64,000 bases of DNA, from the IMG/VR virus record IMGVR_UViG_3300033066_001283, positions 86,264 to 150,263 of that record. One strand, 5' to 3'. A program made the position numbers and the translations under genes. The notes beneath the pieces were generated by a model that was given only the letters and a program-made list of their open reading frames with translations, did no database searches and was not told the origin of the DNA. Numbering within the stretch: position 1 is the stretch's first letter; the number at the start of each line of letters is the position of its first letter. Positions 31,741 through 51,129 of this stretch are shown here, piece by piece. The stretch comes from a virus (Duplodnaviria > Caudoviricetes).

Positions 31741-34700
31741 CTATTTAGAGACAATAGCCTTAAATACTTCTCCTAACTTAGCAAAAGCCTCTTTTAGAAT
31801 TGGTGAAAGGTGTGATGCTGACTCTACCCCACCAATCAATCTTCCTTCTACTGCTGCCATTCTTTCAGCGTAACCAGCTTGGTATCTTTCTAATCCAGCT
31901 GCAACTATTTTTCTACCATCAATCTCTTCACCACTATCTAGAAAGAGTTTTGCAGGATCCATTCCTGCAGCTACTGCTTCTAATAGTGTTTGACCCACAT
32001 GTTCTACCAGATTATTGACCATTCCTTCATCTAATCCTTGTTCTACCCACATTCTAGCCATCGGCCTTAACTGATCAATGATGGCTGTGCCTTGGTATCT
32101 TCTAATAACTGATTCTGTCTCTTCAGTAATAGCAGTTTCAGTAGAAGTTAATGATCTTCCTGCCTGAACATCCATCCAGAGTCTACTTTTATGCTTATAA
32201 TTAATTCCATCTTTACTAAACTCAAAAAGCTTTTCTTCACGGTGTGCAACCAACCGATTATAGTTCTCAGCAGAAGAATCTTTCATGTAAGCATTGAAAG
32301 CCTGTTTGGCTGATTCTGAAGTGCTTGCAATATCTGCTAAAACATCCATCAAGCCCTTATCTTTAGCTCCACCAATTCCTTGAAAGATAAGATTTTCACT
32401 TGATTCAAATGAGAAAGGTAATCCTTGATCTTTAATTGCACCATTAGTACTTAACCATTTACCTAATTCTTTAGTGAAAGAGTAATGTTCTCCCTCATAC
32501 TCTATTCCAGTTTCCGCTTTAGTGGGCATTTGAAGCGTTCTTCTATGCTTAGCCTCCCAAGATGAGGATACACCAGAAGAGACGCCTAGAAAGCCCTCTG
32601 AGGCGTCAAAAACCCTATTTACAGAAGACTCACCATAGTGTTTATAGATTGAACTGGCCAACTCTGGCTGAAAATCCTCCATATCTGTTAAAACTAATCT
32701 CGCTTTGACGAGTGGGCTATTAGTAAGCTGCTTCATAGTCTTCATAGTAGCACTCTGATTATTGATTGTTAAGTAGTCACCAATAAATGGTTTCTCACCA
32801 TGAAGGGTGCCTAATAATCCAATTCCAAACCTAAGTCCTTCCTTATCTAAATTTCGCATCATTAAGGTTCCAACTAGAACTTTATCTAAATCCTTATCAC
32901 TATTAAGCTCATTAACTGCCCCAAGTGCCAAACTAATGTTCTCATCCCCATAAACTCCATAATTTTGCTGAAGATCTAATAATCGGTAATGCCTAAAACG
33001 CATAACATTAGTCTCAGGTGTAATAGCTAATCCACCATCAATTTGGGCTACAACATCACTAATTCCTATTGCACCTATTGTTCGTTTTACTTCACCCATA
33101 GCCTCTCTATATACATAAGCTCTATCAGCATAGTCAGCCATACCCATAATGTATGCAATGTATTCCCGATCATTAGGATTCGCCTTTAATGTATTTCTTA
33201 GTGTGGCTGGATCAGTCCCCATAGCTGTAGCTGCTTTAATTAAAATATTATTGTGCTCGAAAATGTAACTAGCAGTAATATTTTCACTTTCACCAAACAA
33301 TCTATTTGACTCAAGACCGATGCCTTTCTTAGTGAATAATGAACCAATGATTTCTGGTAGGTACTGTTCCGGTTGATCTTCTACAACTTCCCCAAACTCA
33401 TTTAACCTTCTTCTAATTGGTAGGTAGATGCCGTGTTGTATATTTTTAAATTTTGCATTAGTTGCTTTTCCAGTAGGATCTCTGAAAGTAACTAATTTAC
33501 CTTCTACCCCGTCAATAGTGTGGAGCTCAAGGAAACTGAAACGCTCATTTATGTTCTTTCTAGTTTTAGTAAACTGTTTGTAGAATTCAAGTGCTCGTGC
33601 AGATGCTTCATGAACTGGGGTTCTAACATCTTTAGTATCCCCATAACTTCTTTTGAAAAACATCTCTTCTGGGCGGAAAGCTCCAATCAACTTTCTAGCA
33701 AGTTGTTCCCTTGGAAGAATAGCTTCGTTAGCAATAACAGCTGCCTGTACCTCTAATGGCATTTGCTCAAAATACTTTCGTTGGCTGGTGCTTTTACCAA
33801 ATACCTCATCTAATGCATAATCATGAGCAACCATAGCTTGTAGCTGATGGTACATGGGTGATGAAGCTGTTCCTTTCTGGTTAAGACCAAGATTTTCAAT
33901 AGCCATCGCCACAAGCCCTTTATCACGAAGTGGATCAAATAAAGCAAATGCCCCAGTTAAAGCATTATCATCCTCCATCAATTGTGCATACTTATCTGGG
34001 TTATCTCTTGCTAACCTGGCTAGAAAATCTTTGAAAGCAATTAAGTTGGTAACATTTACCTGGTTAGTTCCGAGGCCTACTACTGTATCTCTAGCTCCAA
34101 TCTCCCACATCTTTGTGAAAGCCTTAACCTGGTTCTCTTTAGTACTGGTAAAATAATATTCCAGATCTTTTGAAATACCTTTAAACACTGGGTGGTTAGG
34201 TCCAACCTCTTTTATTCCCCGAAGAATCTTGTGTGGATCTTGCTTATCATAGTGTATAACGTAGGTTAAGTTTGGTGAGTGTGCTGGGAACTTGGTAACA
34301 AATCCTCCAAGGCTAATATTACCATTACCCACCCTCTGCTTCATCTCTTCAGTTTTTCGCTGAAGCCATGCGTTAAAATTAGCTTCAAATGTTGTAACAG
34401 ATACTTGGTCACCATCAAAGTCACGGTAGAGTAGGTAAGAAGCTTTTGGGTTCATCATAACAACCTCTTGCCCTGTATTCTCATTCACCTGAATCCTAAT
34501 ATGTATCTCAGTTCCAGGTGGAATAGGAAGCTTCTCAGTATCGGCCCAGCTTCTTCCCCTCAGTTTTGGGTCCATAGGGAGCGTAGGATCCCAAAATAGC
34601 TTCATCATTCTAGTGTGAACATTATCAGCACCAAACGCTTTACTTAAAAAGTGTTTAACTGCAGCAGGACCTTCTATTCTACTTTGATCATTTCCTAGCT

Positions 34701-34950
34701 TTGTTAAATTCCTTCCAGCTATATTCCTTAACTGGGCTAGAATCGCAGTGTTATCATCAGCAGAATTAATTCCCGCCTTCAACTGTCTCCAAGCGAAGTC
34801 AAAGCCAGCTGCAAAAATCTCCCGTTGATTCTGAACAAAGGGTATTGCTTCAAATTCGCCCCTTATCTCATCAGCAGAAAATAATCTCCCTGAAGAATCT
34901 TTAAACCATGTATTAGGTTTAAATGTATACCTTCTAGCAATCCAGCTCAT
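31741..34950 (-). CDS. Putative single-subunit two-barrel RNA polymerase (candidate virion RNAP)
   Basis: MMNP...YRDFDGDQV (D177-D181, nt 34408-34422); VGLGTN; GKWLSTNGAIK (res. 830-840); colinear motif similarity to 42506..45082. Confidence 0.65.
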   Translation of the reverse strand: MSWIARRYTFKPNTWFKDSSGRLFSADEIRGEFEAIPFVQNQREIFAAGFDFAWRQLKAGINSADDNTAILAQLRNIAGRNLTKLGNDQSRIEGPAAVKHFLSKAFGADNVHTRMMKLFWDPTLPMDPKLRGRSWADTEKLPIPPGTEIHIRIQVNENTGQEVVMMNPKASYLLYRDFDGDQVSVTTFEANFNAWLQRKTEEMKQRVGNGNISLGGFVTKFPAHSPNLTYVIHYDKQDPHKILRGIKEVGPNHPVFKGISKDLEYYFTSTKENQVKAFTKMWEIGARDTVVGLGTNQVNVTNLIAFKDFLARLARDNPDKYAQLMEDDNALTGAFALFDPLRDKGLVAMAIENLGLNQKGTASSPMYHQLQAMVAHDYALDEVFGKSTSQRKYFEQMPLEVQAAVIANEAILPREQLARKLIGAFRPEEMFFKRSYGDTKDVRTPVHEASARALEFYKQFTKTRKNINERFSFLELHTIDGVEGKLVTFRDPTGKATNAKFKNIQHGIYLPIRRRLNEFGEVVEDQPEQYLPEIIGSLFTKKGIGLESNRLFGESENITASYIFEHNNILIKAATAMGTDPATLRNTLKANPNDREYIAYIMGMADYADRAYVYREAMGEVKRTIGAIGISDVVAQIDGGLAITPETNVMRFRHYRLLDLQQNYGVYGDENISLALGAVNELNSDKDLDKVLVGTLMMRNLDKEGLRFGIGLLGTLHGEKPFIGDYLTINNQSATMKTMKQLTNSPLVKARLVLTDMEDFQPELASSIYKHYGESSVNRVFDASEGFLGVSSGVSSSWEAKHRRTLQMPTKAETGIEYEGEHYSFTKELGKWLSTNGAIKDQGLPFSFESSENLIFQGIGGAKDKGLMDVLADIASTSESAKQAFNAYMKDSSAENYNRLVAHREEKLFEFSKDGINYKHKSRLWMDVQAGRSLTSTETAITEETESVIRRYQGTAIIDQLRPMARMWVEQGLDEGMVNNLVEHVGQTLLEAVAAGMDPAKLFLDSGEEIDGRKIVAAGLERYQAGYAERMAAVEGRLIGGVESASHLSPILKEAFAKLGEVFKAIVSK

Positions 34951-35091: not shown

Positions 35092-36102
35092 TTAATCCTT
35101 CTTAATACTCCAACCATAGTAAGTTGGAAACTTACCCTTCTTCAATTGATACAAGCCATTTCTTGGAATATTAAATTGTTTAGCTAACTGAGAGATATTA
35201 TTAGTTACATGCTCATTACCGTTGGGATCAATGAATGTGGGGTGTATTGTCTCTCCATTCTTTATTCTTACAGAGTTTTCAGCATTTATTTTCGCTATTC
35301 TTTCACTCTTTTCAGATGAGTAAATCTTTTCTTTTGCTGCTTTACGAGGTTTAGGTTGCCATATCTTTTCTCTTTCACCTGGAGGTAAAGAATATCCCTT
35401 GTAGGTTTTGCGCGTCCCATTAATAACTCTTCTTAGTCTTTTTTGCTCTAAATTATTCTCTTCACAAAATAAACTTAAATTTCTAACTGTAAAAGTGGTA
35501 TTCTGAAAACAAAGTTGATACTCTTTTGAGATTGGTTTATTTTCCCTGTATTCTCTGGAAATATTTTCTTTTTTATATTTCTCTCGACTCTTAATAACCT
35601 TATCAGAAATAGTATACCGTCTGCCGTAATCTTTACTTCTCTCTAAAGATTCTAATCTTTTAGCATTTCGATATTCAATCCTTTCAGAGTCACTCATACT
35701 AGATAGCTTCTTGCGTTTTTCTTGCCCTTCCTTAACCTTAGTACTAAATTCAGTTTCAGAAATTCTAATTTTATAATTAGGTAGTAGTCCTGGCTTTAGT
35801 AGTATATTATACATTTTGTCTTTAGTACATAGACTTAAGTAATATTCTTCTTTTTCGTTCAGCTGCTCAATCGAGCACTCCTCAATAATTCCCGGTTTAA
35901 AGTATTCTTTATCTTTATTCCATGCGTTCTGAAGATATGCATTAGAGTGTACCCCTTTCAATAAATCACATCTGTGATCTGTAAATCGTCTAGGTATATG
36001 TTTAGATTGTCCTATATACATTTTATCATTTAATGTGTTGTATAGACAATAGATGCCAGAAACATTTGGAACTTCCTTCCATTCGTATAATGAGATATTC
36101 AT
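35092..36102 (-). CDS. GIY-YIG homing endonuclease with C-terminal NUMOD-like repeats
   Basis: SGIYCLYNTLNDKMYIGQS..IPRRFTDH...HSNAYLQNAWNK...E..Y...YN. Confidence 0.9.
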   Translation of the reverse strand: MNISLYEWKEVPNVSGIYCLYNTLNDKMYIGQSKHIPRRFTDHRCDLLKGVHSNAYLQNAWNKDKEYFKPGIIEECSIEQLNEKEEYYLSLCTKDKMYNILLKPGLLPNYKIRISETEFSTKVKEGQEKRKKLSSMSDSERIEYRNAKRLESLERSKDYGRRYTISDKVIKSREKYKKENISREYRENKPISKEYQLCFQNTTFTVRNLSLFCEENNLEQKRLRRVINGTRKTYKGYSLPPGEREKIWQPKPRKAAKEKIYSSEKSERIAKINAENSVRIKNGETIHPTFIDPNGNEHVTNNISQLAKQFNIPRNGLYQLKKGKFPTYYGWSIKKD

Positions 36103-36275
36103 ATAAAAGAATGTAGATCATCCCCTAAAAATCAAGGCATGTCTGAGTTGGTAATAGACGGGGGCATAGTCGGAATTAGACCCACGAGGGTCGTTTTTAT
36201 GGGCAATCATGCCTATAGGGAATCATCCCAGTGATGCTGTGCTCAACAGCTTTTACCTTTGTAGGAGGTAATATC

Positions 36276-36614
36276 GTGTTTAAAATGACAGTAGCCACTA
36301 TGGCAGCGATCATTCTGCGTAGTAAGGACATGGCAAGTCCTTCCATCGCTCTCCGTTCAGGCGAGCTTGTCCTCATTGATGGAGATATCAATGACGAGAA
36401 CCTTCTCATCGTGGATGCGGTGGACACCTCGTTCTGGGAACAGTGGTTGCCCAGTAATATCCCGTTCCGACATACCTTTGGAACGTTCGAGTCTCAAATG
36501 AAGCGGTACGTGAGCCGCTTCAATCGAACTGGTGTAAAGAATGTCCTCATGGCATTGTCGTATCATGAGGTGCAGTTGAAGAGGAGGTATCCAGAAGAAC
36601 TGTTTAAAGACTGA
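36276..36614 (+). CDS. Early hypothetical protein
   Basis: Start revised to GTG 36276 after TGTAGGAGGTA RBS. Confidence 0.6.
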   Translation: MFKMTVATMAAIILRSKDMASPSIALRSGELVLIDGDINDENLLIVDAVDTSFWEQWLPSNIPFRHTFGTFESQMKRYVSRFNRTGVKNVLMALSYHEVQLKRRYPEELFKD

Positions 36615-36681
36615 GCCGAAAGCCAGGGATTTCTCCCTGGTTATACATAGGGTATGCTCCTATGTACTGATGAGGCAGCAC
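36615..36681 (+). ncRNA. Hammerhead ribozyme, type II (copy 1)
   Basis: GCC-GAAA-[GCCAGGGA tttc TCCCTGGT]-TA-[TACATAGG gtatgct CCTATGTA]-CTGATGA-GGC-AGCA. Full core, stems I-III, loop I TGCT complementary to 3' AGCA; predicted cleavage after A36643. Confidence 0.92.
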
Positions 36682-36718
36682 TCTCACAACGACCTTTACC
36701 TTTGTAGGAGGTAATATT

Positions 36719-37033
36719 ATGCTATTGACATTCACCATTCCATCTACTGGGCACATACGCTCAGTGGATCTGAGGGACGAGCTTGTGCATGAGTACAAGC
36801 TTTCAATCCAAGAGATGAGCAGGTACTTTAGCCCTGCTCTTGACAGACAGCGGAGGGCAGCACACAATAAGGTGGCTGCTTCTCTTGTCCCCATTCTCAA
36901 GGAAGAACTTCCTGAGGAGGATGATGCTTCTCTCACTCAAGAGGCCCGTAGGATAGTGACGGGTTTTTTAGAAGAATCCCTGACTGGCCGGAGTATGGTC
37001 AGGGAGCTCCTGGACTCCGGTTTACTGCGTTAG
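36719..37033 (+). CDS. Early hypothetical protein
   Basis: TGTAGGAGGTA RBS. Confidence 0.65.
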   Translation: MLLTFTIPSTGHIRSVDLRDELVHEYKLSIQEMSRYFSPALDRQRRAAHNKVAASLVPILKEELPEEDDASLTQEARRIVTGFLEESLTGRSMVRELLDSGLLR

Positions 37034-37040
37034 TTTGAGT

Positions 37041-37097
37041 ATTGCGGTGAACAGTGCCTAACTGTATGGTGTGTAAATCACCTATCTGTAGGAGGTA
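37041..37097 (+). ncRNA. Unidentified conserved intergenic structured motif B (copy 1)
   Basis: TGCGGTGAACAGTGCCTAACTGTATGGTGTGTAAATCACC, near-identical to copy 2. Confidence 0.6.
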
Positions 37098-37105
37098 AGT
37101 AAATC

Positions 37106-37372
37106 ATGCGTTCAATGAACAAAGGAAGTTGGGTGTATTTACCAACTCTTATCACTCTTTCGATGCTCCAGGAGCAGAAGGACAGACACTACACCTTCCA
37201 CCCAGAGGTCTTCTTCGAGGACCTCAATCCTGGGTGGACTGAGCAGGTTCTCGGGTTCATGGCGAAGAACCCAACGTGCTCGATGAGCATCGATGCACGG
37301 TATCATCAGGACAGCTACTCTGATGGGGAAACCCTTAGAGGAGAAGGCATGGTGTATTGTCAGACTAGATAA
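37106..37372 (+). CDS. Early hypothetical protein
   Basis: TGTAGGAGGTA RBS. Confidence 0.65.
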   Translation: MRSMNKGSWVYLPTLITLSMLQEQKDRHYTFHPEVFFEDLNPGWTEQVLGFMAKNPTCSMSIDARYHQDSYSDGETLRGEGMVYCQTR

Positions 37373-37440
37373 TGCCGAAAGCCAGGGATTTCTCCCTGGT
37401 TATACATAGGGTATGCTCCTATGTACTGATGAGGCAGCAC
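37373..37440 (+). ncRNA. Hammerhead ribozyme, type II (copy 2)
   Basis: Core identical to copy 1, stem II TGCC/GGCA; begins immediately after stop codon; predicted cleavage after A37402. Confidence 0.92.
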
Positions 37441-37474
37441 TCTCACAACGTTTGTTACCGTAGGAGGTAATATA

Positions 37475-37636
37475 GTGAATAGAAGAACAAAACTCATCAT
37501 CGTTAGTGCTATCATAGTAGCACTATGCCTGCTGGATGCAGCAGGTGTCTGCATCACTGACCCTCGCTTTGAGGCGGGGAAGCAGGATAGGGCTCAAGCA
37601 GCCCGCATTCTTGAGGAAGCAAGCACAACACATTGA
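37475..37636 (+). CDS. Small membrane-anchored early protein (53 aa, not in ORF track)
   Basis: GTAGGAGGTA RBS then GTG; MNRRTKLIIVSAIIVALCLLDAAGVCITDPRFEAGKQDRAQAARILEEASTTH. Confidence 0.6.
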   Translation: MNRRTKLIIVSAIIVALCLLDAAGVCITDPRFEAGKQDRAQAARILEEASTTH

Positions 37637-37640
37637 TTGC

Positions 37641-37695
37641 TTGTGGTGAACAGTGCCTAACTGCATGGTGTGTAAATCACCTAATTGTAGGAGTA
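37641..37695 (+). ncRNA. Motif B (copy 2)
   Basis: TGTGGTGAACAGTGCCTAACTGCATGGTGTGTAAATCACC. Confidence 0.6.
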
Positions 37696-37700
37696 ATAAA

Positions 37701-38144
37701 ATGAAAACATTAGTAGTAGCAGTGTGGGCGTGGCTTTCGGCCAAGTACCAAGGTCTTGTCTATGGCAGGACTGAGAAGTGTGAGTGGTGCGGGGAGCCGT
37801 GCGTTCCCAACGCTCACCATATGTGTGTGCACTGCCTTGAACAGGAGTTTGGCACTCCTGAAGACTGGCAGGCAGAGTGGGAAGAGGACTCGCTTCGACA
37901 GAAGATCGAGGACGTTCTGGATCCTGAAGAGTTGGAGCATTCTAATACTCAGGATCAAGGAGAGGGATGGGGAGTCCACACCTGCTGCAAGTGTGGTGGA
38001 AAGACTCATCCTGATGGTCCTGCATCTGTGTGGGATCCTTTCACCGATGAGACTTGGTGTGAGGATTGCTGGTATAAGGAGAATCCTCCCAGCGAACAGC
38101 TCATAAAGAGTCTGCCGAAGTGTGAGGTAGACTTCGAAGACTAA
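37701..38144 (+). CDS. Early Cys-rich (Zn-binding) acidic protein
   Basis: Start revised to ATG 37701 after TGTAGGAG; CEWC, CVHC, CCKC, CEDC pairs. Confidence 0.6.
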   Translation: MKTLVVAVWAWLSAKYQGLVYGRTEKCEWCGEPCVPNAHHMCVHCLEQEFGTPEDWQAEWEEDSLRQKIEDVLDPEELEHSNTQDQGEGWGVHTCCKCGGKTHPDGPASVWDPFTDETWCEDCWYKENPPSEQLIKSLPKCEVDFED

Positions 38145-38148
38145 TGAG

Positions 38149-38202
38149 TATATGGTGGACGTGCCTAACGTAGCAGAAGGATTATCTGCATTTGTAGGAG
38201 TA
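38149..38202 (+). ncRNA. Motif B (divergent copy 3)
   Basis: TATGGTGGACGTGCCTAACGTA then GCAGA-7nt-TCTGC hairpin, then TTTGTAGGAG. Confidence 0.5.
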
Positions 38203-38210
38203 GTAAGAAC

Positions 38211-39569
38211 ATGAAACTGTTAAGTTTAGAACAAGTGTGGAAGATGCGGACGAAGCATCAGTTGGAGTGGTTGAACTCAATCCCTGACCTGAAGACGAAG
38301 AAGTGTCAGCGTGTTGTTGTAAGAGGAAACAAGACGATTTCAATCGTCGTGACCATGGGATTCCGAGATTCGGAATCAAAGGTCCGTCTATTCAAGATCG
38401 AACACAGATTTAAGATTGATGGTACCTACCTTGGCTCGTACTTTGAAGGAATAGATCCTTCTGCCTTCACGCGTCAGGTTCTGAGGCTGGTGAGATTATC
38501 ACTCCCAGGGTTGCACTCAAAAGTGCAACATGGGTATGTTATGGATAAACTCTGCCACCCATTCGATCTAGCGGATTTTTCCAAGGAAATTGGTATCAGC
38601 GCCTGCCCGTGGGGTGTTAAGACCGTTCTGCTGTGGCAGGATCTTGGATTCTATACTAGGTATAGTGTCAATGATCTCTACCTTCCAGTTAAACATGGAT
38701 TGTTACGCAATCTAAAACGAGAAGATCATGGAGGATTAGAGTACATGATGCGAAAGGGAGGCAAGTATATTCGCTCCCTAGGAAAACAAGGAAGTATTAT
38801 GGTATGGAGAGCTGTAACAGCAATGGATGCTGCTAGAATCTCTCCCGGCCTCCCCTTCCGAGTGGCCACAATGTGGTTAACTGTAGTAAGCCATAGACGG
38901 AACGAAGAATCTCTCCCAATATGGGCAAGGTTTATCTTCCTTCACTGGGAGCAGAACTACAGAGCCATTCTTCGTAGAACGAAGAATGCAGCTGGAGTGC
39001 ATCGCTCACGAGATATAGATGCAGTGCTCAATGATCTGTATGATTACTTGGGTGCACATTACGAAGAAGCTCTACCAGATGCTGCATTCGAGGTCTTGTT
39101 CCAAAGATCAGAAGCGTGGCATCGCGTGTTAAGAGAGAATCGGCGTGCTCTTAATGATATAGACTATGGTCCAAATCTTGAGAAGGACACTGCTCTTCCT
39201 TGGAATGGATTGGAAGGAACATTCTCTATTGGCGAATTCGAGTTTACTCGAATTACAACGTATGGAGATCTCTTGGATGAGGGCGACATTATGCGGCATT
39301 GTGTAGCTACATATGTCAGGTATTGTCTAACAGGCAATACATCCATTTGGAGTATGAGACTCAAGGTACTAAAGGGCAAGAAATGTATGCGTGTTGCCAC
39401 ACTTGAAGTAGCGCATGCAGGAGTGTCTGAGTTGCGACAGGCTCGAACTGCCTGTAATGGCTCACTAAACGACGAACAAAGAGCCGCAACCAGAGCCTTT
39501 GTATCCTGGCTTAACAATCAACCACTTAGTGTGGGTGAGAGACTTAGAGCATTGAATGAGGTAAACTAA
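38211..39569 (+). CDS. PcfJ-like domain protein
   Basis: C-terminal S..WH ... LLDEGDIMRHCVATY ... SIWSMR ... ATLEV ... Q....N pattern typical of PcfJ family. Confidence 0.7.
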   Translation: MKLLSLEQVWKMRTKHQLEWLNSIPDLKTKKCQRVVVRGNKTISIVVTMGFRDSESKVRLFKIEHRFKIDGTYLGSYFEGIDPSAFTRQVLRLVRLSLPGLHSKVQHGYVMDKLCHPFDLADFSKEIGISACPWGVKTVLLWQDLGFYTRYSVNDLYLPVKHGLLRNLKREDHGGLEYMMRKGGKYIRSLGKQGSIMVWRAVTAMDAARISPGLPFRVATMWLTVVSHRRNEESLPIWARFIFLHWEQNYRAILRRTKNAAGVHRSRDIDAVLNDLYDYLGAHYEEALPDAAFEVLFQRSEAWHRVLRENRRALNDIDYGPNLEKDTALPWNGLEGTFSIGEFEFTRITTYGDLLDEGDIMRHCVATYVRYCLTGNTSIWSMRLKVLKGKKCMRVATLEVAHAGVSELRQARTACNGSLNDEQRAATRAFVSWLNNQPLSVGERLRALNEVN

Positions 39570-39898
39570 TGAACAAGAATAAGAAGCTCCAGATGGAGCG
39601 GATCATCGCTGAGGTACGAGCAAACAAAGTGCTCGTTATTGATGTCAAGGACTTTGAAGCCTATCGAGGTGTTGTCCGCCTTGGTACCCTCAAGGCGAGG
39701 GAAGCAAAGAGGGAGTGGAAAGCTCCCAAGTTGATTGTCAAAGCTCAGACAGCTGATCCTGAAGTTCTCAGGAAGTTGGCTGACAGAGGAGCTAGCAGAA
39801 TTATCTGCTCAGTTCCCAAGAACAAGAAACGAGAGATCATCCAGTCTCTCGTCAAGAACCCTGCACGATGTTGGGTGCAGGTAATGGAGGTAAAATAA
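39569..39898 (+). CDS. Basic hypothetical protein
   Basis: GAGG RBS, translationally coupled. Confidence 0.55.
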   Translation: MNKNKKLQMERIIAEVRANKVLVIDVKDFEAYRGVVRLGTLKAREAKREWKAPKLIVKAQTADPEVLRKLADRGASRIICSVPKNKKREIIQSLVKNPARCWVQVMEVK

Positions 39899-40164
39899 TG
39901 CCACTACTCATTCAAGTGTTCAGGAAGGGGCAGAATGAGCCCCTTGCCTTGCAGGATGTTGATATGGAGGTGAGAAATCACTTCCAATATCACAAGGACC
40001 AAGAGACAAAGTTTATTTGTAGTTGGCCCTCAACTCTCACATATAGGCTTGCATTCAAGCCTATGGATGAGGTACTATCTGATCTAAGAGCAGACGGATT
40101 AGTCACAGTCGCTGAGGTATGTGAGTATATCAGCGATAATTATGACATCAGAGTATGGAGGTAA
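39898..40164 (+). CDS. Hypothetical protein
   Basis: Start revised to ATG 39898 after GGAGG. Confidence 0.55.
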   Translation: MPLLIQVFRKGQNEPLALQDVDMEVRNHFQYHKDQETKFICSWPSTLTYRLAFKPMDEVLSDLRADGLVTVAEVCEYISDNYDIRVWR

Positions 40165-40167
40165 ATC

Positions 40168-40485
40168 ATGTGGAAATTGATCAGGATTGAGCTAGGTAGT
40201 CGAAAGACTGTCCTGCTCAAGAAGCAGTTCGCTACTGAGAGAGATGCTCAGAAGCATGCCAATCGACTCAATGGTATGTATGCCCATCGCTATGGTGATG
40301 GGTTCTACCATGTACAACTCCTATCCCCTTCTCAGTGGAGAGAGCCACAAGTGGTGAAGACCAAGTGGTTCATCGGAGATAAGACAGGGCAGATAATCGC
40401 CTCATTTGATCAGGAAGAGAAAGCTACCCAGTTCTTAGATGATAACTGGGAACAGGACTGGACCAAATGGCAGGGCCCAGCCTAG
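40168..40485 (+). CDS. Hypothetical protein
   Basis: GGAGG RBS. Confidence 0.55.
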   Translation: MWKLIRIELGSRKTVLLKKQFATERDAQKHANRLNGMYAHRYGDGFYHVQLLSPSQWREPQVVKTKWFIGDKTGQIIASFDQEEKATQFLDDNWEQDWTKWQGPA

Positions 40486-40586
40486 CATCACTGTTCTATT
40501 CCCCTACTGGATTAGCCTCCGGTAGGGGAACGCCTGCCGTGGATTGCCGCCTAGGTGGTGATACCAAGTTGTAGGAGATTACAAAT

Positions 40587-40826
40587 ATGAAACAGCCTAT
40601 CGTAATTACAGCAGAGCGCAAAGCCGAACTGAAGAGGATTGTCAAGCGGGCAATCGAGACCGGAGCTACGAGCTTCACCGTGAACAGCCCAGCAGAATGG
40701 ACGTTCTGCGTGCGTGCTATCCAACACGAGCGGTCTAAGGGGCAGTACATCCCCAATAAGCAGATCCTTACCCGGACACAGCTCCGGGATGACGCGCTCG
40801 AAGACTTCGATTACAATCCAAGCTAG
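40587..40826 (+). CDS. Early hypothetical protein
   Basis: TTGTAGGAG RBS. Confidence 0.55.
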   Translation: MKQPIVITAERKAELKRIVKRAIETGATSFTVNSPAEWTFCVRAIQHERSKGQYIPNKQILTRTQLRDDALEDFDYNPS

Positions 40827-40998
40827 TGCGTGTTCGGGGCCAACCTAACGGTTGGCCCCCCTTTTCTTGTGGCCTAACAAACCTCCGGTAGACTGCCTGT
40901 TTGGTAGTTTTGGGGCTAATTACGCTCTTGTGTGGTGTTGCCACATTGGGCACGGCCTGAGGTTTGGGGTGTTAGTGCCCCCATTGTAGGAAGGTAAT

Positions 40999-41346
40999 AT
41001 GCTGAAAATTATCAAGAATCGACGTGTGCGTACAGCACCAGTGACCAAGCCCGTAAAGCTTACCACTACAGACGAGTTTGATGCTCTAATGAGCAGACTT
41101 GAGGAGCTTTCTAAGCAACTTGTTATGCCTGCTTCCCCGAAGAACCTCACTCCTGAAGATATCAGGGAAGGGACTAAGAAGATGATGATCGGAACTCTGT
41201 TCATTACAGAGATGGAAGGCAATACGCAGGAAGAGCAGATTGCCATGTTCATCAGAATTCGCTCTCAGCTAGTTCCGTATGAGCTTGACTGGTTCAGGCT
41301 CGGAGCTGAGGCGATCATGGAATACAGACGGCTATGTTCGGCCTAG
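40999..41346 (+). CDS. Early hypothetical protein
   Basis: TTGTAGGAAGGTA RBS. Confidence 0.55.
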   Translation: MLKIIKNRRVRTAPVTKPVKLTTTDEFDALMSRLEELSKQLVMPASPKNLTPEDIREGTKKMMIGTLFITEMEGNTQEEQIAMFIRIRSQLVPYELDWFRLGAEAIMEYRRLCSA

Positions 41347-41531
41347 GACGACCTGTAGACAGACGTGGAGAGTATTCACGTCCACTGACAATCAAAGAAT
41401 GTGAAGAACTGATGGCATTCTTTGAGTTGGCTCTACAGCAAACTGGCATGCCACAGTTCTGGTATGCCCTTGCCAAGAAGAAGAGGGATGAGGTTATAGA
41501 GGCCTACTCCCACTTAATGGAGGCACAATGA
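41334..41531 (+). CDS. Hypothetical protein
   Basis: Overlapping operon ORF. Confidence 0.45.
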   Translation: MFGLGRPVDRRGEYSRPLTIKECEELMAFFELALQQTGMPQFWYALAKKKRDEVIEAYSHLMEAQ

Positions 41532-41893
41532 GTAGTGCAAGTCTACGAAAGACCATTAAAGAGCAGGGAACTATCTCTGTCTCTGAACTAGCGAAGGCTC
41601 AGCTTGAGAAGTTCAACGCTGAGCGAATCGGCTACATAAGGGCCGCTAAAGAGGTCCTTAAGAAAGACAGGTATTCTGAGATTTCTCAGAATGTTGAAGT
41701 AACAGTCGATGGCGAAGGACTGTTGCTAACTTTGAAGGTTCGCCCACAACCAGTCACAGAGGCTCTCATAAGAGAGATCTATGATACAATTCGAAGTGCA
41801 CAAGCAGCTGCTGATGCGGCTGCTGATGAGGGCTTAATGGAAAGAGTCCTTGACGAAAACAAGAAAATCATAGGAGCAATAAATGGCGAGTAA
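41528..41893 (+). CDS. Hypothetical protein
   Basis: GGAGG RBS. Confidence 0.55.
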   Translation: MSSASLRKTIKEQGTISVSELAKAQLEKFNAERIGYIRAAKEVLKKDRYSEISQNVEVTVDGEGLLLTLKVRPQPVTEALIREIYDTIRSAQAAADAAADEGLMERVLDENKKIIGAINGE

Positions 41894-42359
41894 ATTCATC
41901 AACCCTTCGACACTCTGGCAGAAAAAGCTGAAGAATTGCAGCACTGCTGATCAAGATGCAGCTCAGGAGATCCTCAGTGAAATCCACAGCAAGCCCCTTA
42001 CCATGCAGAAATGGGGCGATGGATCTCCACTCTTCTTCAGAAATGGCTCTACCAGCTCAAAGCATCGAGTACCATCGGTGCCAGTTCGTTACCTGATCGA
42101 AACTGGATTGGCCGGTGTTACCATCGACAATCACGTGGTGCCACTCGAGAAACCAATCGAGTACGAAACACCCGGCGTAACCAAGCCTACGACTCAACAG
42201 GAATCTTCCGTTGGAAGAGTCATCAATCTGTCTACGCAAGAAAGACAGTTCATTGAGCTATTACGAATCTTGCCATCGCACGTCAAGAAGGAGATCACGG
42301 AATACGCTAACACCGAAGCCCGCGCCTTCATGAAGGAGATTAACAGTCTATTGTGCTGA
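41883..42359 (+). CDS. Hypothetical protein
   Basis: AGGAG RBS. Confidence 0.55.
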   Translation: MASKFINPSTLWQKKLKNCSTADQDAAQEILSEIHSKPLTMQKWGDGSPLFFRNGSTSSKHRVPSVPVRYLIETGLAGVTIDNHVVPLEKPIEYETPGVTKPTTQQESSVGRVINLSTQERQFIELLRILPSHVKKEITEYANTEARAFMKEINSLLC

Positions 42360-42505
42360 GAATGGTCGGTATGACAATCTACATCATCGCGTGTGTAATC
42401 CTCGGATTCATCTGCGCGATATTATTCATCGAGCCCCTGATCAATAAGTATCAGGAGCACAAAGCAGCAAAAGCCTAAGACACTACTGTAGGAGGTAGTA
42501 AAATC

Positions 42506-45082
42506 ATGAAATTCAAATTCACGAAGAAGGTAGATCCTTCATTTGAGTACTTTGACTGGAACGGAATTAAGGTTCCGTACAGTACAAACCAGAAGCTGGT
42601 ATTGGACGGTAAGGAGACAGTTCCTGATAAGCCACATATTAGCTACCTGAAACGTGGCAACATCCAAGCAGCCTGCGTTAGCATGGCTCGTGAAGCCCTT
42701 ATCCTATTGATGGGGGAAATGACATTTCAAGTAAGAGGATGGGATGCTCCAACAGCAGTCTCAGCCTCAGTTCCAGAAGGAGCCATTTATCTTGACAAGC
42801 GTGGCGTTCCAGTAGTCAATGAAGACTGGGGCGATCAGCACGCACTTGATGCTGATGGAGATAGGTGCTCCATCCATCGGCATAAGGATAATCCAGGACA
42901 AGCTGTACTGGTGAAATATCCTGTTACCAGCACCCCAATCACTGGTCTTATCTCCAAAGATGGCATCTTGGAGAAATTCACTGGCCTTACAGTGGAAGAT
43001 AGTCAGAAGCTGATATCTCAGTACAATACTTCAGGTGAAGTGTATGGAATTCCAGGTGATGGAATCAGTGTCGAGTTCGGCAAGAATACTCCTTATCAAG
43101 AGGAGAAGTTCTTCCTGAAGGGGCATACACCAGCACCGGTAGGCCTACTCACCAATGGCTGGAATACTTACGAGCTAGATAAAGCTCAAGCCAAGCGTGG
43201 ATGGTCTAGGAAGATTGACAGCATGTTCAATAACTATCAGAGATATGAAGATATTGAACTGGGCGGTCTGAAGGCTGCGCGTAAGGATGAAGCATCACTA
43301 GCAGACAGTGACATCACTAAGCTTGATTATGCCCTTGCATATCAGCATGCTTGGGCATTGACTGGCACAGGTAGACTTGCAGGTTTAAGTGAGCAGGCTC
43401 TTGAATGGTTCCCAGCTCTTGATGAGAAGGGCCTTAAGCAGGTGCTTACTGACATCAGCAAACTGAATGTGGATTTCAGGAAGAGAGAAGAGAATGATTT
43501 CGAGCGTCGTAAACCTACGCTACGAACATCTCCATTCCTGAAGAAGCTTTTGCCTGCCAGGTACTACTATAAGGGCAAGCTGATTGAGAACCCAGATCAT
43601 ATAACTAAAGGTGGACTGATAAAGTTCTATGAACTAAAGGCTATGCCTGGAGCTCCATCTGCAGTGGTAATCTGGCTTCAGAGACCAGAAGGCATCCCAG
43701 TTGCTCTTACGGACGTGAAACGTAAGGATCACGATCCAGAAGGCTTAGGCTTTGCATACGTTCTTTATCCTGTCTGGGATAACAGAGAACTCTACAGCAA
43801 TGACAAGACTGGCGATCAAAGTCTAATGGTCAGTGCCAAATCATGCTGGGTGCATCCTATCGACCATCTCGAGAAGTGCCTACGTCAGTTCGACAATAAG
43901 GTGATCAATCCTGAAAATGGCGTAGTAGTTTCAAGATTCCCTGAATCCTGGGAAGAGTGGAACTGGCCAAGCAGAGCAGGCAAGATCAAGAGACTGCAGA
44001 AGTTCCTCACTGACTATTGTGGCGAGTATGGTGACGTAGTAAACTGCACCATGCGTAATCGACGTCCTGAGCTACTTGAGCATAATGTCAAGTTCGCAAG
44101 AGCTTCAGCAGTGATCGATTATGGTGGAATAGAACTTACACCAGAGCAAATGTGGAAGATTGCATCTAAAGCGTCTTCTAAGCTACGACTCTGCTTAGGT
44201 GGCAATAAGCAGACCAAGAGTCACGTCAGGAAATACTGTATTGCTGATGAATCTGGTACACCTGCATGGGGAGCGTTTAAGACTAAATGCCATCCAGCTA
44301 GGCAGGGAAAGCAAAGAGCACAGCTTGTGCATGCACTGAAGGAAGTGAGAATGCGTGTGGCAATTGTCAACTGCAACACTCTCACTCAATGCTTCATCAC
44401 ACCCTCTGGTATTGAGAAACAAACCACATCATCAGGATTCCTGCCAATGTGTCTCAACTCACTAGGAGACGCTCAAGCATATCTGGACAGTCTCACTGAT
44501 CTGGAGAAGGCTAATATGCCTGATAACTTCTTGAAGGGAACCGAGTTTACAACTTGGACTGGACAGAAGGTAACAGTCTGGGTAGTAAATCCCAGAAATA
44601 CCGTTCAGGTAGGTAAGCTGATCTCAACACGAGCAGAGAAGTTCGTACCAAGAGTGATTGGGCCTGTAGTTGACCTTGATGAGTTCAATGCCAACATGGA
44701 GAATGAGCAGATCGATTTGGTCATTCCAGTCACTGAACTGATCAATAAGGGTGCACATACCAATATGCTTGAGAAGTGCACCGAACATATGATTCACTTC
44801 AAGTCATATGTGTCTGAAGATCTCACTCAGCTAGGTGATATCACCATTCCAGCAATGGTTGGAGAATTCATCTACTTCAGAAGTGGTGCTCACTCAGAGA
44901 ATACACCACCACGATGGCGAACATGCCGATACAAAGGAATTGATGGGCATGTAATCATTCGACAAATTGAAAAGCTCTATGGCAAAGAATGGGAACAAGA
45001 AGTGAACATTCTTCCTGCACTTGAGCTTCTTGACTCAATGAAGAAGATCATGAAACGTTGTGGCATCAAATTCAACCGCTAG
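42506..45082 (+). CDS. Putative single-subunit two-barrel RNA polymerase (candidate non-virion RNAP)
   Basis: HALDADGDRC (D115-D119, nt 42848-42862); VGLLTN; beta-like GKLISTRAEK (K704..K712, same spacing as GDKxxxRHGNKG), IDLVIP, PAMVGEFIY. Confidence 0.7.
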   Translation: MKFKFTKKVDPSFEYFDWNGIKVPYSTNQKLVLDGKETVPDKPHISYLKRGNIQAACVSMAREALILLMGEMTFQVRGWDAPTAVSASVPEGAIYLDKRGVPVVNEDWGDQHALDADGDRCSIHRHKDNPGQAVLVKYPVTSTPITGLISKDGILEKFTGLTVEDSQKLISQYNTSGEVYGIPGDGISVEFGKNTPYQEEKFFLKGHTPAPVGLLTNGWNTYELDKAQAKRGWSRKIDSMFNNYQRYEDIELGGLKAARKDEASLADSDITKLDYALAYQHAWALTGTGRLAGLSEQALEWFPALDEKGLKQVLTDISKLNVDFRKREENDFERRKPTLRTSPFLKKLLPARYYYKGKLIENPDHITKGGLIKFYELKAMPGAPSAVVIWLQRPEGIPVALTDVKRKDHDPEGLGFAYVLYPVWDNRELYSNDKTGDQSLMVSAKSCWVHPIDHLEKCLRQFDNKVINPENGVVVSRFPESWEEWNWPSRAGKIKRLQKFLTDYCGEYGDVVNCTMRNRRPELLEHNVKFARASAVIDYGGIELTPEQMWKIASKASSKLRLCLGGNKQTKSHVRKYCIADESGTPAWGAFKTKCHPARQGKQRAQLVHALKEVRMRVAIVNCNTLTQCFITPSGIEKQTTSSGFLPMCLNSLGDAQAYLDSLTDLEKANMPDNFLKGTEFTTWTGQKVTVWVVNPRNTVQVGKLISTRAEKFVPRVIGPVVDLDEFNANMENEQIDLVIPVTELINKGAHTNMLEKCTEHMIHFKSYVSEDLTQLGDITIPAMVGEFIYFRSGAHSENTPPRWRTCRYKGIDGHVIIRQIEKLYGKEWEQEVNILPALELLDSMKKIMKRCGIKFNR

Positions 45083-45182
45083 GGTTTTGTGGTTGTTTTT
45101 GGGCTCTTGTGAGCTATGTCCAATGTTTTAGTGATGAGGTTTGGGGGTAACCCCGTTAACAACAATTAGGAAACACAACATC

Positions 45183-45992
45183 ATGTCATTCAGAGAACAA
45201 TTGAAGCAGACAACTCAGATCAAGCCTGAGGTCATAGACCTCGGTATCGATCACGACGTACTTGCTACTTCTGGAAGCACACCACTTGCAGTAGCAGTCA
45301 TTCCTCTCAAGCAGAAATTCGAAGGGAAAGTCTTTGAGTATTCTACCCCTATTAAAGGGGGCGGATCTCAACGGATTCCCTACGAAGTCTGGGCCGCCAA
45401 GTTCATCGCCCTTAAAAGCCGGTCTACTAAGATGGGCGAAAAGGGCGAACCCACAACTCTCGTATACGTTGGATTCCTTGGGAAGCCAATCAAGCGAGAC
45501 GACAAAACTGGGGAACCGCTGAAGGATAAAGATGGCAAGTTCATCTATGACGACCATGACATCCCGGAAGAGATGTGCATGGAAATCGATGGTGACCTTC
45601 TTCCAAATCTATGCGAGTTTAGACTTGCATGGGGCGTCAACTTCCAAAAGAGCGCAACCAAGCGGCTTAGTGTGCCAGAGATCAAGATCGGCATGAGCAG
45701 AAATGTTCCAGCCGACCGCAAATCTGGAGACAAAGGACAAACCTATCTTAACGAAGATTGGGACGTAATCCCATTCGGTCGTGGATTGCTCCATTGGGCA
45801 CACAATCACTTGCTAGTTGGTATGGAAGATGGGAATCAGACCCTGACAACTATCTACAATTCCATTCCACAGGAAGAAGTGCGTGACAAGAATGCTGAGG
45901 GCGACTCCGTAGCTGGCGATATCATTGATCCCGAAAAGGTCAATGAGGCCGCAGACGCAGCTGAGCCAGTCGGAGTGTCAGTCGACGAGTAA
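45183..45992 (+). CDS. Hypothetical protein, possible ssDNA-binding protein
   Basis: Beta-rich, acidic C-terminal tail; follows RNAP-like gene; start revised to ATG 45183. Confidence 0.35.
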   Translation: MSFREQLKQTTQIKPEVIDLGIDHDVLATSGSTPLAVAVIPLKQKFEGKVFEYSTPIKGGGSQRIPYEVWAAKFIALKSRSTKMGEKGEPTTLVYVGFLGKPIKRDDKTGEPLKDKDGKFIYDDHDIPEEMCMEIDGDLLPNLCEFRLAWGVNFQKSATKRLSVPEIKIGMSRNVPADRKSGDKGQTYLNEDWDVIPFGRGLLHWAHNHLLVGMEDGNQTLTTIYNSIPQEEVRDKNAEGDSVAGDIIDPEKVNEAADAAEPVGVSVDE

Positions 45993-46430
45993 GTGAAGAG
46001 GAATGGGGAAGTTCGAAAGGGCTCTCCCAAGCATCAGCAACTCAAACAGCAAACGAAACAGATGCACAAAACGATACCGGTCTAGGATAGGTATCGGGGA
46101 AGGGAAGTGTCTAGGATACAACCCTTCCCAAAAAATTTCTTATCGCTCGAAATCTAATTGCTAGGCAATGAAATTAAGAGTGATGAGGAATGGGAGTACA
46201 GCAAGTGGATGCTCGAAAGACCGTCTGACTTGTGTCTTACTCTCTTACTTTTGCCTGTACAGAGTCGAAGGAGAAATCCGGAGCAAAACAGGCCTGGAAG
46301 CCATCAGAGAAAGCAGGTTAACATAGATCTAGGCGGAGAGACCCCGCTAGGGCAGCAATGCCCTAAAGACGACCACGTGCGTCCCAGGATCCTTAAGATT
46401 TTTACCCCGTCCAACACAAGCAGAGCCATA

Positions 46431-46456
46431 GGGGAGCAATACGCTCCCCACTTTTT
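46431..46456 (+). terminator. Intrinsic terminator
   Basis: GGGGAGC aatac GCTCCCC a CTTTTT. Confidence 0.7.
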
Positions 46457-46459
46457 CGA

Positions 46460-46550
46460 TTTCTACCTTCACTACCTCCTACAACAGTGACACGGTAGGG
46501 GGTCAGGCAACTGGCCCCAACCAATTTCAGGGTGCAATCCCACCTATCGT
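46460..46550 (+). ncRNA. Candidate small RNA presenting an anti-RBS loop
   Basis: TCACT-ACCTCCTACAAC-AGTGA hairpin, then GGGGTCAG gcaa CTGGCCCC and GGG tgcaat CCC. Confidence 0.55.
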
Positions 46551-47048
46551 AGATCCTCTCCCCAAAAGAAGAAACACGCACCCTGATTCAATTTCCGGCC
46601 AGCAATGGACGGAGAGTACTCTAACAGGAAATCCCTGGTATGAACTGTTAGAAGAATAATATCAGGGCAAAGGACCCATGTGATAGAGACCTTGTGGTGA
46701 TGAAATGGGATTAAACCACAAACTTGGCCAAGGTTGAATGGTCTTAACAAGATGCTAAGTCAACAATACGCTCTTGGGATTTAATGTTGATTTCCAACAC
46801 AGCCTGCTGCACTGCAAAGTGTCTCAGGTCCTTGCGGAAGCAGGAACATATGCAAACTCACACTGTGAACTGAGTAAGCGGGCTTCTCTTTTGCGTCGAG
46901 CGAGAGGAAGCTGACTCAACATAGTTGAAGAAGCGAGATGACTAAATCACAGGCTTAAGATCGGTATCCTTTCGGGATGCTTTAGTCAAGAAGAAGTGAC
47001 GAATTATTCTGTCTGAGCGAAGAATCAACTGATGGTTGCGGGATCTAC
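46549..47048 (+). ncRNA. Candidate ~500-nt structured non-coding RNA
   Basis: Closing helix GTAGATCC/GGATCTAC, many nested stems, crossing helices, no credible ORF. Confidence 0.5.
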
Positions 47049-47348
47049 CCTATTTAAATCTCGAATCATTTTTGGCGCCAATACGCCCTTAGTCTGGAAA
47101 TCTGAGGGATCAATCAAACTGGTAATTTCCAACTACTAGGAGTACACAGAATGGTGTGTACTCAGCGCCATCAGAGCAATTGCCGAAGCTCTGGAGTTGA
47201 ACATACGTAATACATGTGCATGTCTAAATACAGGTATGTACTGGGTAGTCAAACCGAGAAAATATTGAGAGGCGTTTTAACCAATAACGTAGTTTCAGTC
47301 ATGACTGAAACTGGATGTGTTCAACTTACCCTATTTCCAATCAAAGCC

Positions 47349-48101
47349 ATGAAACTAATACTTGCCAGTATAATGATCGTTTCTGTTGCCCACGCAAATT
47401 CCTTTGGGAAAATCATGTGCGTAGGTGACTCACTAACTGCAGGTGGTGCTAATCCACCAGCATATAGACAGGAGCTGTTCAATTTACTGACAAGCGGGTT
47501 AGATACTTTCCAATTCGTTGGCCCAAATGACTGGGGCTACTTTGGATCAGTACATGCTAACATTCATGCAGGTTTCGGTGGATGGAGTAGTTACCAATTG
47601 TGTAATGGTAACACATTATCTCCTTCTTCTGGTAAATTATCTGATTGGTTGAGTTTCGCTCCCAATACAGTAATACTCATGTGTGGTACCAATGATTACT
47701 GGGATAATTATTCCGGCATTGGCTACTGGGATACAGTTTCACAGAATAACCTTTGGAATAACATGGTTCCAAGGTACACAAATCTACTGAATCAAGTATT
47801 CAGTAGCGGTGCTTCGCTTGTCGTCTTTGTTGCTCCACCAAAGTATCTTGCTGATAATTATGGGCCGAGATATGAGTATCTCCATCAATTATCAGTAGTT
47901 GTAAAGAGTGTTTATACGACATTCTATCAACAACGTAAGAACATCAAGTTCGTTGATCTATGGTCAGTAGCATCTGATCAACTTGGAGTCGACCTAGGTT
48001 CTGATAACATTCACTGGAACAATAATGGTGCTAAGAAAGCAGCAACATGTATTTATGGTGGGATGAAAAGAACATTAGGGATGAGGATAGAGACACAATG
48101 A
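47349..48101 (+). CDS. Secreted SGNH/GDSL hydrolase (esterase)
   Basis: Signal peptide MKLILASIMIVSVAHA, GDSLT, MCGTND, DNIHWN; start revised to 47349. Confidence 0.85.
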   Translation: MKLILASIMIVSVAHANSFGKIMCVGDSLTAGGANPPAYRQELFNLLTSGLDTFQFVGPNDWGYFGSVHANIHAGFGGWSSYQLCNGNTLSPSSGKLSDWLSFAPNTVILMCGTNDYWDNYSGIGYWDTVSQNNLWNNMVPRYTNLLNQVFSSGASLVVFVAPPKYLADNYGPRYEYLHQLSVVVKSVYTTFYQQRKNIKFVDLWSVASDQLGVDLGSDNIHWNNNGAKKAATCIYGGMKRTLGMRIETQ

Positions 48102-50877: not shown

Positions 50878-51129
50878 GTTTCAAGTAGATTTCGTAGAAG
50901 GCTTATGTTTTCCGCTACCTAATGGGAAAATAGGCTACTGGTCACCACCGACTCCTATCTTTAGGGATTCGCCACCAGTTATAGGTGAAGGTAAAACAGT
51001 CGAAGAAGCTATAGATAAATATGAATTCATAGCTGCACTAACTGTTGTGATTCCAGAAAAACTATTTACATCGCGTAAATAACCATCATTAGTGATGGGG
51101 AATGGGGATAAGAACCCCAAGGAGAAAGC

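Follow-up and report, generated by a model that had tools for sequence, protein, structure and literature searches.

The early operon and its spacer element

The window analysed here is a stretch of 64,000 nucleotides (bases 86264-150263) of a 150,263-bp contig from an uncultured phage in IMG/VR (IMGVR_UViG_3300033066_001283), and our subject is a small intergenic element, here termed B, which is repeated within an early operon of this phage. The direction of transcription flips at about position 36103 of the window. To the left of this point lie leftward genes of about 36% GC, including those for a 1069-aa protein and a GIY-YIG endonuclease, and to the right begins a rightward block of small open reading frames (ORFs) of about 46% GC, with the B elements within its first 2 kb. 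The slots of this rightward operon follow the order gene, hammerhead ribozyme, gene, B, gene, hammerhead, gene, B, gene, B, gene. This alternation was already apparent in a preliminary description of the locus, made from the letters alone, and it is correct: all three copies (B1, B2 and B3) lie between a stop codon and the next ribosome-binding site (RBS), the same slot in which the ribozymes are found. Searches of the flanking small proteins against Pfam and PHROGs recognised no RNase and no regulator.

B is a spacer of about 65 nt on the + strand, each copy of which spans the whole gap from stop codon to RBS (Table 1), the motif itself starting 9-13 nt past the stop codon. Its conserved 5' half reads (TGAGTAT)-RGTGRAC-GT-GCCTA-AC; conservation extends about 20 nt upstream of GCCTA, with the TGAGTAT segment common to B1, B3 and L038a, a copy from a related genome. 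The 9-mer GTGCCTAAC occurs exactly three times, always at a B copy, and the 17-nt core with up to three mismatches allowed has two matches against 0.38 expected. There is no B copy beyond B1, B2 and B3 in the 150,263-bp genome. The two hammerheads are identical to each other and form a 94-nt repeat (family D1); both match the type II hammerhead model RF02276 with scores under its gathering score of 37. A cmscan search of positions 35900-38400 against Rfam 15 at E values up to 10 returned these hammerheads and a chance microRNA match, with none over B1-B3, which bears out the early impression that B matches none of the twister, twister-sister, pistol, hatchet and hepatitis delta virus ribozymes. 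A search of the whole window at gathering scores gave two tRNAs only.

Table 1. Positions of B, the hammerheads and other leader features in the window (bit scores of B and B-like features from covariance model R1)
Feature	Position	Strand	Description
P1, leader of first gene	36179..36275	+	
P1 terminator-like hairpin and T-run	36179-36200	+	
P1 GCCTA	36211-36215	+	
P1 AGTGAT and B-like hairpin	36230-36250	+	GCTGT-GCTCA-ACAGC; only 13.5 bits
Type II hammerhead 1	36614..36684	+	RF02276, 27.7 bits, E 0.0075, full-length; slot equivalent to B
B1	37034..37105	+	whole spacer, stop of 104-aa gene to ATG of 88-aa gene; 81.7 bits
B1 core	37046-37062	+	GGTGAACAGTGCCTAAC
B1 hairpin 1	37051..37065	+	ACAGT-GCCTA-ACTGT, 5 bp, 5-nt loop; RNAalifold, structure-aware alignment
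B1 hairpin 2	37068..37082	+	GGTG-TGTAAAT-CACC, 4 bp, 7-nt loop
B1 RBS	37088-37095	+	GTAGGAGG
Type II hammerhead 2	37373..37443	+	RF02276, 26.0 bits, full-length
B2	37637..37700	+	83 bits
B2 hairpin 1	37650-37664	+	A.C closing mismatch
B2 hairpin 2	37667-37681	+	
B3	38145..38210	+	64.3 bits
B3 core	38154-38169	+	GGTGGACGTGCCTAAC
B3 hairpin 1	38159-38171	+	ACGT-GCCTA-ACGT
B3 hairpin 2	38173-38189	+	GCAGA-AGGATTA-TCTGC
Weak B-like leader	40539..40586	+	GTGGA, then TTGCC-GCCTA-GGTGG (G.U-rich stem), then RBS; 20.9 bits, E 0.0016
Intrinsic terminator with GCCTA	40836..40876	+	terminator 40836-40859 and T-run, then GTGGCCTAAC with GCCTA at 40872; conserved in L030 and L045

Protein look-ups led to near relatives of the phage in other assemblies (L031, L038, L039, L040, L044 and L045); the data sets with relatives are JGI 3300020577, SRR32051691, SRR32380193, SRR8942298 and ERZ1749649. 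The covariance model R1 recovers seven strong matches at 64-86 bits, namely the three copies of the window and four further ones in near relatives from other samples, the next best match standing at 21 bits; among the copies there are six distinct sequences. In three more distant relatives (L041-L043), which carry the putative polymerase described below at about 33% identity, neither R1 nor a hairpin descriptor detects a B copy. Wider searches gave the same picture: the 25 matches of an exact-core scan of IMG/VR are all unrelated and mostly in coding contexts, none of 6 matches to a core-plus-RBS pattern in JGI metagenomes is B-like, and among the 50 listed matches to a looser pattern in GTDB genomes none exceeds 22.6 bits with R1. 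Comparison of the region with GenBank phages by blastn gave no match, and a search of IMG/VR for related loci with the PcfJ-like protein of the operon and with the polymerase returned nothing. Across IMG/VR, the JGI metagenomes and the GTDB genomes, B is confined to one narrow lineage. Within that lineage B is a real, conserved and modular element outside the known RNA families.

Two small hairpins

An alignment made with regard to structure needs one gap in each arm of hairpin 1 of B3, with which all copies are otherwise free of gaps up to the RBS, and RNAalifold applied to it yields exactly two hairpins, 1-2 nt apart. Hairpin 1 has the form AC(A)GU-GCCUA-AC(U)GU; the pair at the centre of its stem is A-U in four copies, appears as U-A in the copy L038b and is missing from both arms in B3. 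In L038b the loop reads GCATA instead of GCCTA, and the hairpin is kept. In B3 and L038b the GGUG/CACC stem of hairpin 2 has given way completely to GCAGA/UCUGC with register and 7-nt loop retained, the chance of four Watson-Crick pairs in this register being about 0.004. The wholesale exchange of the second hairpin in the third copy, noticed in the preliminary description, leaves the register unchanged when the deletion on both sides of hairpin 1 is taken into account, and AC(A)GT-GCCTA-AC(T)GT, which had been offered there as an alternative fold, is the fold backed by all copies. Hairpin 1 sits 25-30 nt before a highly conserved RBS, and the extended RBS of the phage family, TGTAGGAG, lies 4-5 nt downstream of hairpin 2.

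Other pairings proposed earlier do not hold in all copies. The helix TGCGGT/ACTGTA survives three transitions among B1-type copies, by way of G.U pairs only, and is impossible in B3 and L038b. Six of the seven copies could pair the loop CCTA with TAGG of the RBS; L038b, which has the altered loop with an unchanged RBS, could not. Both a loop-RBS pseudoknot and a GGUGA:UCACC outer helix were rejected, neither being kept in the B3-type copies. B shows no conserved tertiary pairing, pseudoknot or third helix, its longest supported helices have 4-5 bp, and the single-sequence folding energies of the three copies are ordinary (z = +0.05, -0.33 and -0.12). The alignment support, the failure of the outer helix and of the loop-RBS pairing, and the ordinary folding energies together indicate that the two small hairpins are real and that nothing more elaborate is supported.

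Several familiar RNA signals were considered and rejected for B. An intrinsic-terminator scan (GC-rich stem and U-tract) has matches at 36179, 40836 and 46431 and none in B, which is devoid of a U-tract. A site for RNase III, for which about 20 bp of double-stranded RNA as in the T7 early mRNA was the criterion, would need longer helices than B offers, and the minimum free energy (MFE) folds of B are not unusual. The pistol ribozyme reportedly has three stems and a 6-bp pseudoknot that joins the P1 loop with the P2/P3 internal loop (see PMC4604425); B has only two hairpins, the only candidate for a loop pairing, the 4-bp CCUA:UAGG, is placed 3' of hairpin 2 and cannot form in L038b, and there is no match to RF02679. 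The lambda nut site (boxA/boxB) and the HK022 put site offer little likeness, the loop of B not being GNRA-like and no boxA being seen.

Gain and loss of genes at B

Variant genomes have gained and lost genes by crossovers inside B, inside the hammerheads and in the shared RBS. L040 (positions 1-1400, compared with 36110-38300 of the window) is without exactly the 759-bp hammerhead-to-hammerhead segment that holds the 104-aa gene, the 88-aa gene and B1, and this deletion is a DNA-level indel between two identical ribozyme repeats. In L038 the 104-aa gene is joined through a B1/B2 hybrid to a diverged homologue of the 147-aa gene, the PcfJ-like gene is missing and a B3-type copy stands before the next gene, and in L031 a different gene and then a B1-type copy precede the PcfJ-like gene. 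In L045 the leader of the first gene, P1, replaces B1 before the 88-aa gene, with the crossover inside GTAGGAGGTAA, the shared RBS. As the copies are conserved across several phage variants and act as recombination joints, it is unlikely that B is a mere duplication relic, an outcome for which the preliminary description had allowed. In the slot after the gene downstream of B2, L045 (8171-8239) has an unrelated 7-bp hairpin, GGACCTC...GGAGGTC, followed by 16 nt and the same RBS, and no GCCTA. This plain hairpin suggests that the fillers of these slots, whether hammerhead, B or simple hairpin, are interchangeable.

These observations recall the promoter-early stem-loop (PeSL) cassettes of T4-type phages (PMC2839356, PMC4122927), which like B are small (50-70 bp) composite intergenic cassettes situated among small early ORFans. 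Both combine a stem-loop, a promoter region (putative in B) and an RBS in copies that are near-identical within a genome, and in both recombination between copies, often between promoter and ATG, adds, deletes or swaps genes between close relatives. However, PeSLs contain strong sigma-70 promoters and stem-loops that are effective terminators, whereas B has neither a sigma-70 match nor a U-tract; B in turn would have its putative promoter core within the loop of the stem, and it alternates with hammerhead ribozymes. As far as sequence comparison can tell, B has the makings of a PeSL-like mobile regulatory cassette, being repeated among small early genes, combining stem-loop with RBS and serving as the site of crossovers that make indels and replacements.

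A phage RNA polymerase and the GCCTA motif

The phage encodes an 858-aa protein with a DxDGD motif that is invariant across 19 homologues. The 50 best matches to its predicted structure (pLDDT 81.5) are all second-largest subunits of RNA polymerases (Z up to 9.1 over 200-340 residues), and judged by this model the protein is a phage single-chain two-barrel RNA polymerase. Since the phage thus encodes its own RNA polymerase, a phage-specific promoter class is to be expected. A scan of 35900-48000 for the sigma-70 consensus (-35 and -10 hexamers, 16-18 nt spacing) has no site at any of the three B copies, and a sigma-70 promoter was rejected as an explanation of B; in the AT-rich region upstream of P1 in L045, sigma-70-like sites are no more frequent than in shuffled sequences.

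The pentamer GCCTA at the heart of B is a more promising candidate. On the + strand of the early region of the window it occurs at 5.4 per kb in intergenic against 1.1 per kb in coding DNA, and there is no TAGGC. Among its sites are 36211, immediately behind a terminator-like hairpin and ahead of the first gene, 40549, 40872, just after a strong terminator, 54265 and 54377. An unbiased k-mer ranking was restricted to the three distant relatives L041-L043, none of which had been used to define B; in these GCCTA leads the + strand intergenic 5-mers with 35 occurrences where 13.8 would be expected (p 1e-6), and GCCTAT leads the 6-mers with 19 against an expected 3.2 (p 1.6e-9). GCCTA is followed by A or T at 29 of 34 sites, and a T-run lies at most 25 nt upstream of 35% of the sites as against 13% of control positions (p 6e-4). 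Several sites are located 17-22 nt before a start codon with a Shine-Dalgarno sequence between, among them those of the first gene at the contig ends of L041 and L042, and in L043 too a GCCTA comes right after a terminator. The motif is thus strand-specific and intergenic across the phage family, with many sites in L041-L043, and GCCTA(W) may serve the RNA polymerase of the family as a promoter or 5'-end signal. The GCCTA at 42473, a chance Ala-stop codon pair that is not conserved in L030 or L029, was discarded. A general rule by which GCCTA is followed by a 5' hairpin was likewise ruled out, the MFE downstream of GCCTA sites being no lower than at control intergenic positions.

A 10-mer, CCTCCGGTAG, holding the anti-Shine-Dalgarno sequence CCUCC, is found on the + strand, mostly in early intergenic DNA and often within a few to 20 nt of GCCTA. 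It occurs at 40516-40525 and 40882-40891 of the window, and in the distant relatives at 3330 and 3345 of L041, at 5441 and 5780 of L042 and at 2973, 3407 and 4775 of L043.

Other leaders of the operon share features with B or the hammerheads. A part of the P1 leader (36196-36278) and the 3' half of the hammerhead unit (36636-36721) are homologous (z 8.1), the homology taking in stem I, a degenerate CUGAUGA that reads AGUGAUG, the tail and the RBS. The GCCTA of P1 falls roughly at the cleavage position of the ribozyme, so that mRNAs started at such a promoter and mRNAs cut by the ribozyme would begin alike. The B-like hairpin of P1, the sole extra match of the hairpin descriptor in the early-operon slots, belongs to a stretch that aligns better with the hammerhead tail region than with B. 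The score of the weak B-like leader downstream owes much to its RBS, and this leader is kept in L045. A leader hairpin of the form GGGG-8 nt-CCCC at 40966-40981, before the gene at 40999, is homologous to hairpin 2 of B (family D5).

B as a proposed composite promoter and stem-loop cassette

Our tentative reading, to which we give a probability of about 0.4, is that B is a PeSL-like composite cassette made up of a stem-loop, an internal phage promoter or 5'-end signal, a leader hairpin and an RBS. Under this proposal B would work like the PeSL cassettes of T4-type phages while being built for a phage with its own RNA polymerase. The GCCTA in its 5' half would mark the start of a transcription unit, as it is proposed to do across the phage family, and would be both promoter and start site of the two-barrel RNA polymerase, embedded in B within an inverted repeat of 4-5 bp. 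RNA initiated at or near GCCTA would open with the variable hairpin 2, followed after 4-5 nt by the extended RBS. In transcripts that read through, hairpin 1 might fold just past the upstream stop codon and cap that cistron. B would thereby achieve by initiation what the hammerheads achieve by cleavage, that is, a downstream mRNA with its own defined 5' end.

A precedent for a polymerase of this kind is the Thermus phage P23-45, which has a virion and a non-virion single-chain two-barrel RNA polymerase, each with its own short motif, and a conserved 26-nt terminator motif near its left end (PMC10770324). It resembles the present family in possessing a two-barrel single-chain polymerase and in having short motifs upstream of early genes that recur in polymerase-sharing relatives. 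In P23-45 a conserved sequence motif also marks transcript ends, and its motifs were mapped by ONT-cappable-seq and chromatin immunoprecipitation, whereas B and GCCTA are known from sequence, and a similarity between the motif sequences themselves is not established. The hairpin promoters of the N4 virion RNA polymerase (PMC4496689) are reportedly also few and small inverted repeats whose stems covary and whose loops hold conserved bases; they stand where the early region begins, in a phage that, as may be the case here, brings its own polymerase. The N4 enzyme, however, is T7-like, its promoters have a 3-nt loop and start about 11 nt downstream of the hairpin, and the other GCCTA sites of the phage family to which B belongs are without an inverted repeat. 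Finally, the type II hammerhead (RF02276) and engineered ribozyme insulators resemble B in occupying the same inter-cistron slot, where they would give the downstream mRNA a defined, hairpin-led 5' end; unlike the hammerhead, B has no CUGAUGA and GAAA core, no three-way junction and no Rfam match.

A number of observations weigh against a promoter in B. A plain double-stranded promoter would not be expected to show the compensatory change seen in hairpin 1, and this change leaves room for an RNA-level role in processing or stability. L038b retains hairpin 1 and has GCATA in place of GCCTA, all three copies lie inside 1.2 kb of one operon with no terminator ahead of them, and B does not share the T-rich upstream context that is typical of GCCTA elsewhere. 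Genes are not depleted of GCCTA (there are 10 copies in the 9.3 kb of coding DNA in the early region), so that on its own the pentamer would be insufficient as a promoter, and it could instead be a signal at the RNA level or a nick site. There is also a second polymerase candidate, the 1069-aa protein (31741-34950, - strand), which has no Pfam or PHROGs match and shows no significant BLASTP similarity to the 858-aa protein (E 0.39).

Among the alternatives, we regard as the one to be taken most seriously, though unlikely, punctuation at the level of RNA only. Here a host or phage endoribonuclease would recognise hairpin 1, including its GCCUA loop and the flanking RGUGR, and cut in or beside it; the upstream mRNA would then end in a hairpin and the downstream mRNA begin with one, which would make B a protein-dependent counterpart of the hammerheads. 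The slot shared with the hammerheads, the exchange or double deletion of the middle pair of hairpin 1 and the in-register replacement of hairpin 2 agree with such a site, as do the G.U-mediated transitions in the B1-type outer helix, which are specific to RNA, and the GCCTA-free hairpin in another slot of L045; the 1-2 nt between the hairpins would be a natural place to cut. Yet in relatives GCCTA often stands after terminators or before the first gene at contig starts, where there is little upstream RNA to process, the RNA downstream of it is no more structured than that of control intergenic DNA, the stems are far too short for RNase III, and none of the neighbouring ORFs was recognised as an RNase gene. 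Our preference for initiation over processing at B is an inference from this balance.

A translational operator, in which translation of the downstream gene would be tuned either by a phage protein or an RNA bound to hairpin 1 or by base pairing between the GCCUA loop and UAGG of the RBS, seems improbable. A sequence-conserved hairpin with a 5-nt loop at a set distance before a highly conserved RBS would suit this role, as would the possible CCUA:UAGG pairing in most copies. Nevertheless, the GCAUA loop of L038b has no matching change in the RBS, the B-like hairpin of P1 has the loop GCUCA, the downstream genes are mutually unrelated, and the GCCTA at sites without hairpins would be left unexplained.

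Slightly less probable still is a sequence-specific terminator or attenuator for the phage polymerase, comparable to the 26-nt motif near the left end of P23-45. The precedent of P23-45, both of whose polymerases are single-chain two-barrel enzymes (PMC10770324), and the start of a conserved motif so soon after each stop codon speak for it, but three such signals 500-600 nt apart, placed ahead of genes with strong RBSs, would deprive the remainder of the operon, and with it the polymerase gene, of transcripts; moreover, B has no U-tract and ordinary intrinsic terminators serve elsewhere in the operon. We hold in equally low regard the idea that B or GCCTA marks a site-specific single-strand nick in virion DNA, or that B is only a recombination-prone repeat. 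GCCTA and CCTCCGGTAG together resemble the phiKMV-like nick consensus CGACxxxxxCCTA/CTCCGG (PMC3517423, PMC3604761): that motif, too, is strand-specific, intergenic and contains CCTA, with CCTCCGG of the second motif completing the likeness, and the B copies are crossover points. The likeness is nonetheless based on short motifs that differ in spacing, and it is to an unrelated phage group; known nick sites are scattered over the genome, whereas the B copies are clustered within 1.2 kb, and neither a nick nor a relic accounts for the hairpin covariation and the fixed distance to the RBS.

The preliminary description had named three options for B, a new ribozyme, a regulatory RNA or a phage promoter. 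Its claim of a conserved, hairpin-forming motif absent from Rfam holds, and most of the new support, in particular the GCCTA of polymerase-sharing relatives, goes to the promoter. New ribozyme classes are said, after Weinberg and colleagues in 2015, to have been found earlier beside known ribozymes. Even so, a very small self-cleaving or otherwise autonomous RNA-processing motif, with a core of the RGUGR flank and the GCCUA pentaloop hairpin and standing in for the hammerhead in alternate slots, is the least probable of these readings: about 17 conserved nucleotides beside covarying stems, the operon and slot common to two hammerheads and the want of a match to known families favour it, but two hairpins of 4-5 bp with no conserved pseudoknot or third helix, folding-energy z-scores near 0, a second hairpin that can be swapped wholesale, a most conserved "loop" whose sequence recurs without structure at many intergenic sites of relatives and the restriction to one narrow lineage do not. 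B is probably a variant of phage promoter and stem-loop cassettes and not a new ribozyme.

Further features of the region

The GIY-YIG gene (35092-36102, - strand) is present in the window and in L044, and L045, from the same sample, has an AT-rich 478-bp spacer in its place (6600-7080), a presence/absence polymorphism at the divergent junction. A recurrent intergenic motif, (T)AGTGATGAGG-N2-3-TGGGG followed by a hairpin, is found at 45128-45150, 46177-46199 and 51089-51111 of the window, with equivalents in L029 and L030; AGTTGATATGG, the second most enriched intergenic word in L041 (AGTTGA in L041), is related to it. It may be a further promoter class or a relic of a hammerhead core. From about 53750 to 57700 the window has nearly 4 kb of AT-rich DNA (32-36% GC) without an ORF of at least 100 aa, inside which tandem palindromic repeats of TTAAGCCTAAGGCTTAA lie at 56048-56168; this stretch could be an origin, a binding-site array or a set of non-coding RNA genes.

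Implications

If the reading of B as a composite cassette is true, an uncharacterised family of phage single-chain two-barrel RNA polymerases would have in GCCTA(W) its first candidate promoter motif. The operon would then present a natural, slot-by-slot interchange of ribozyme cleavage and internal initiation, by which each small early gene receives its own mRNA, and shuffling of the PeSL type would reach beyond T4-like phages and sigma-70 promoters. If instead B acts at the level of RNA, two different punctuation chemistries would be at work within one phage operon.

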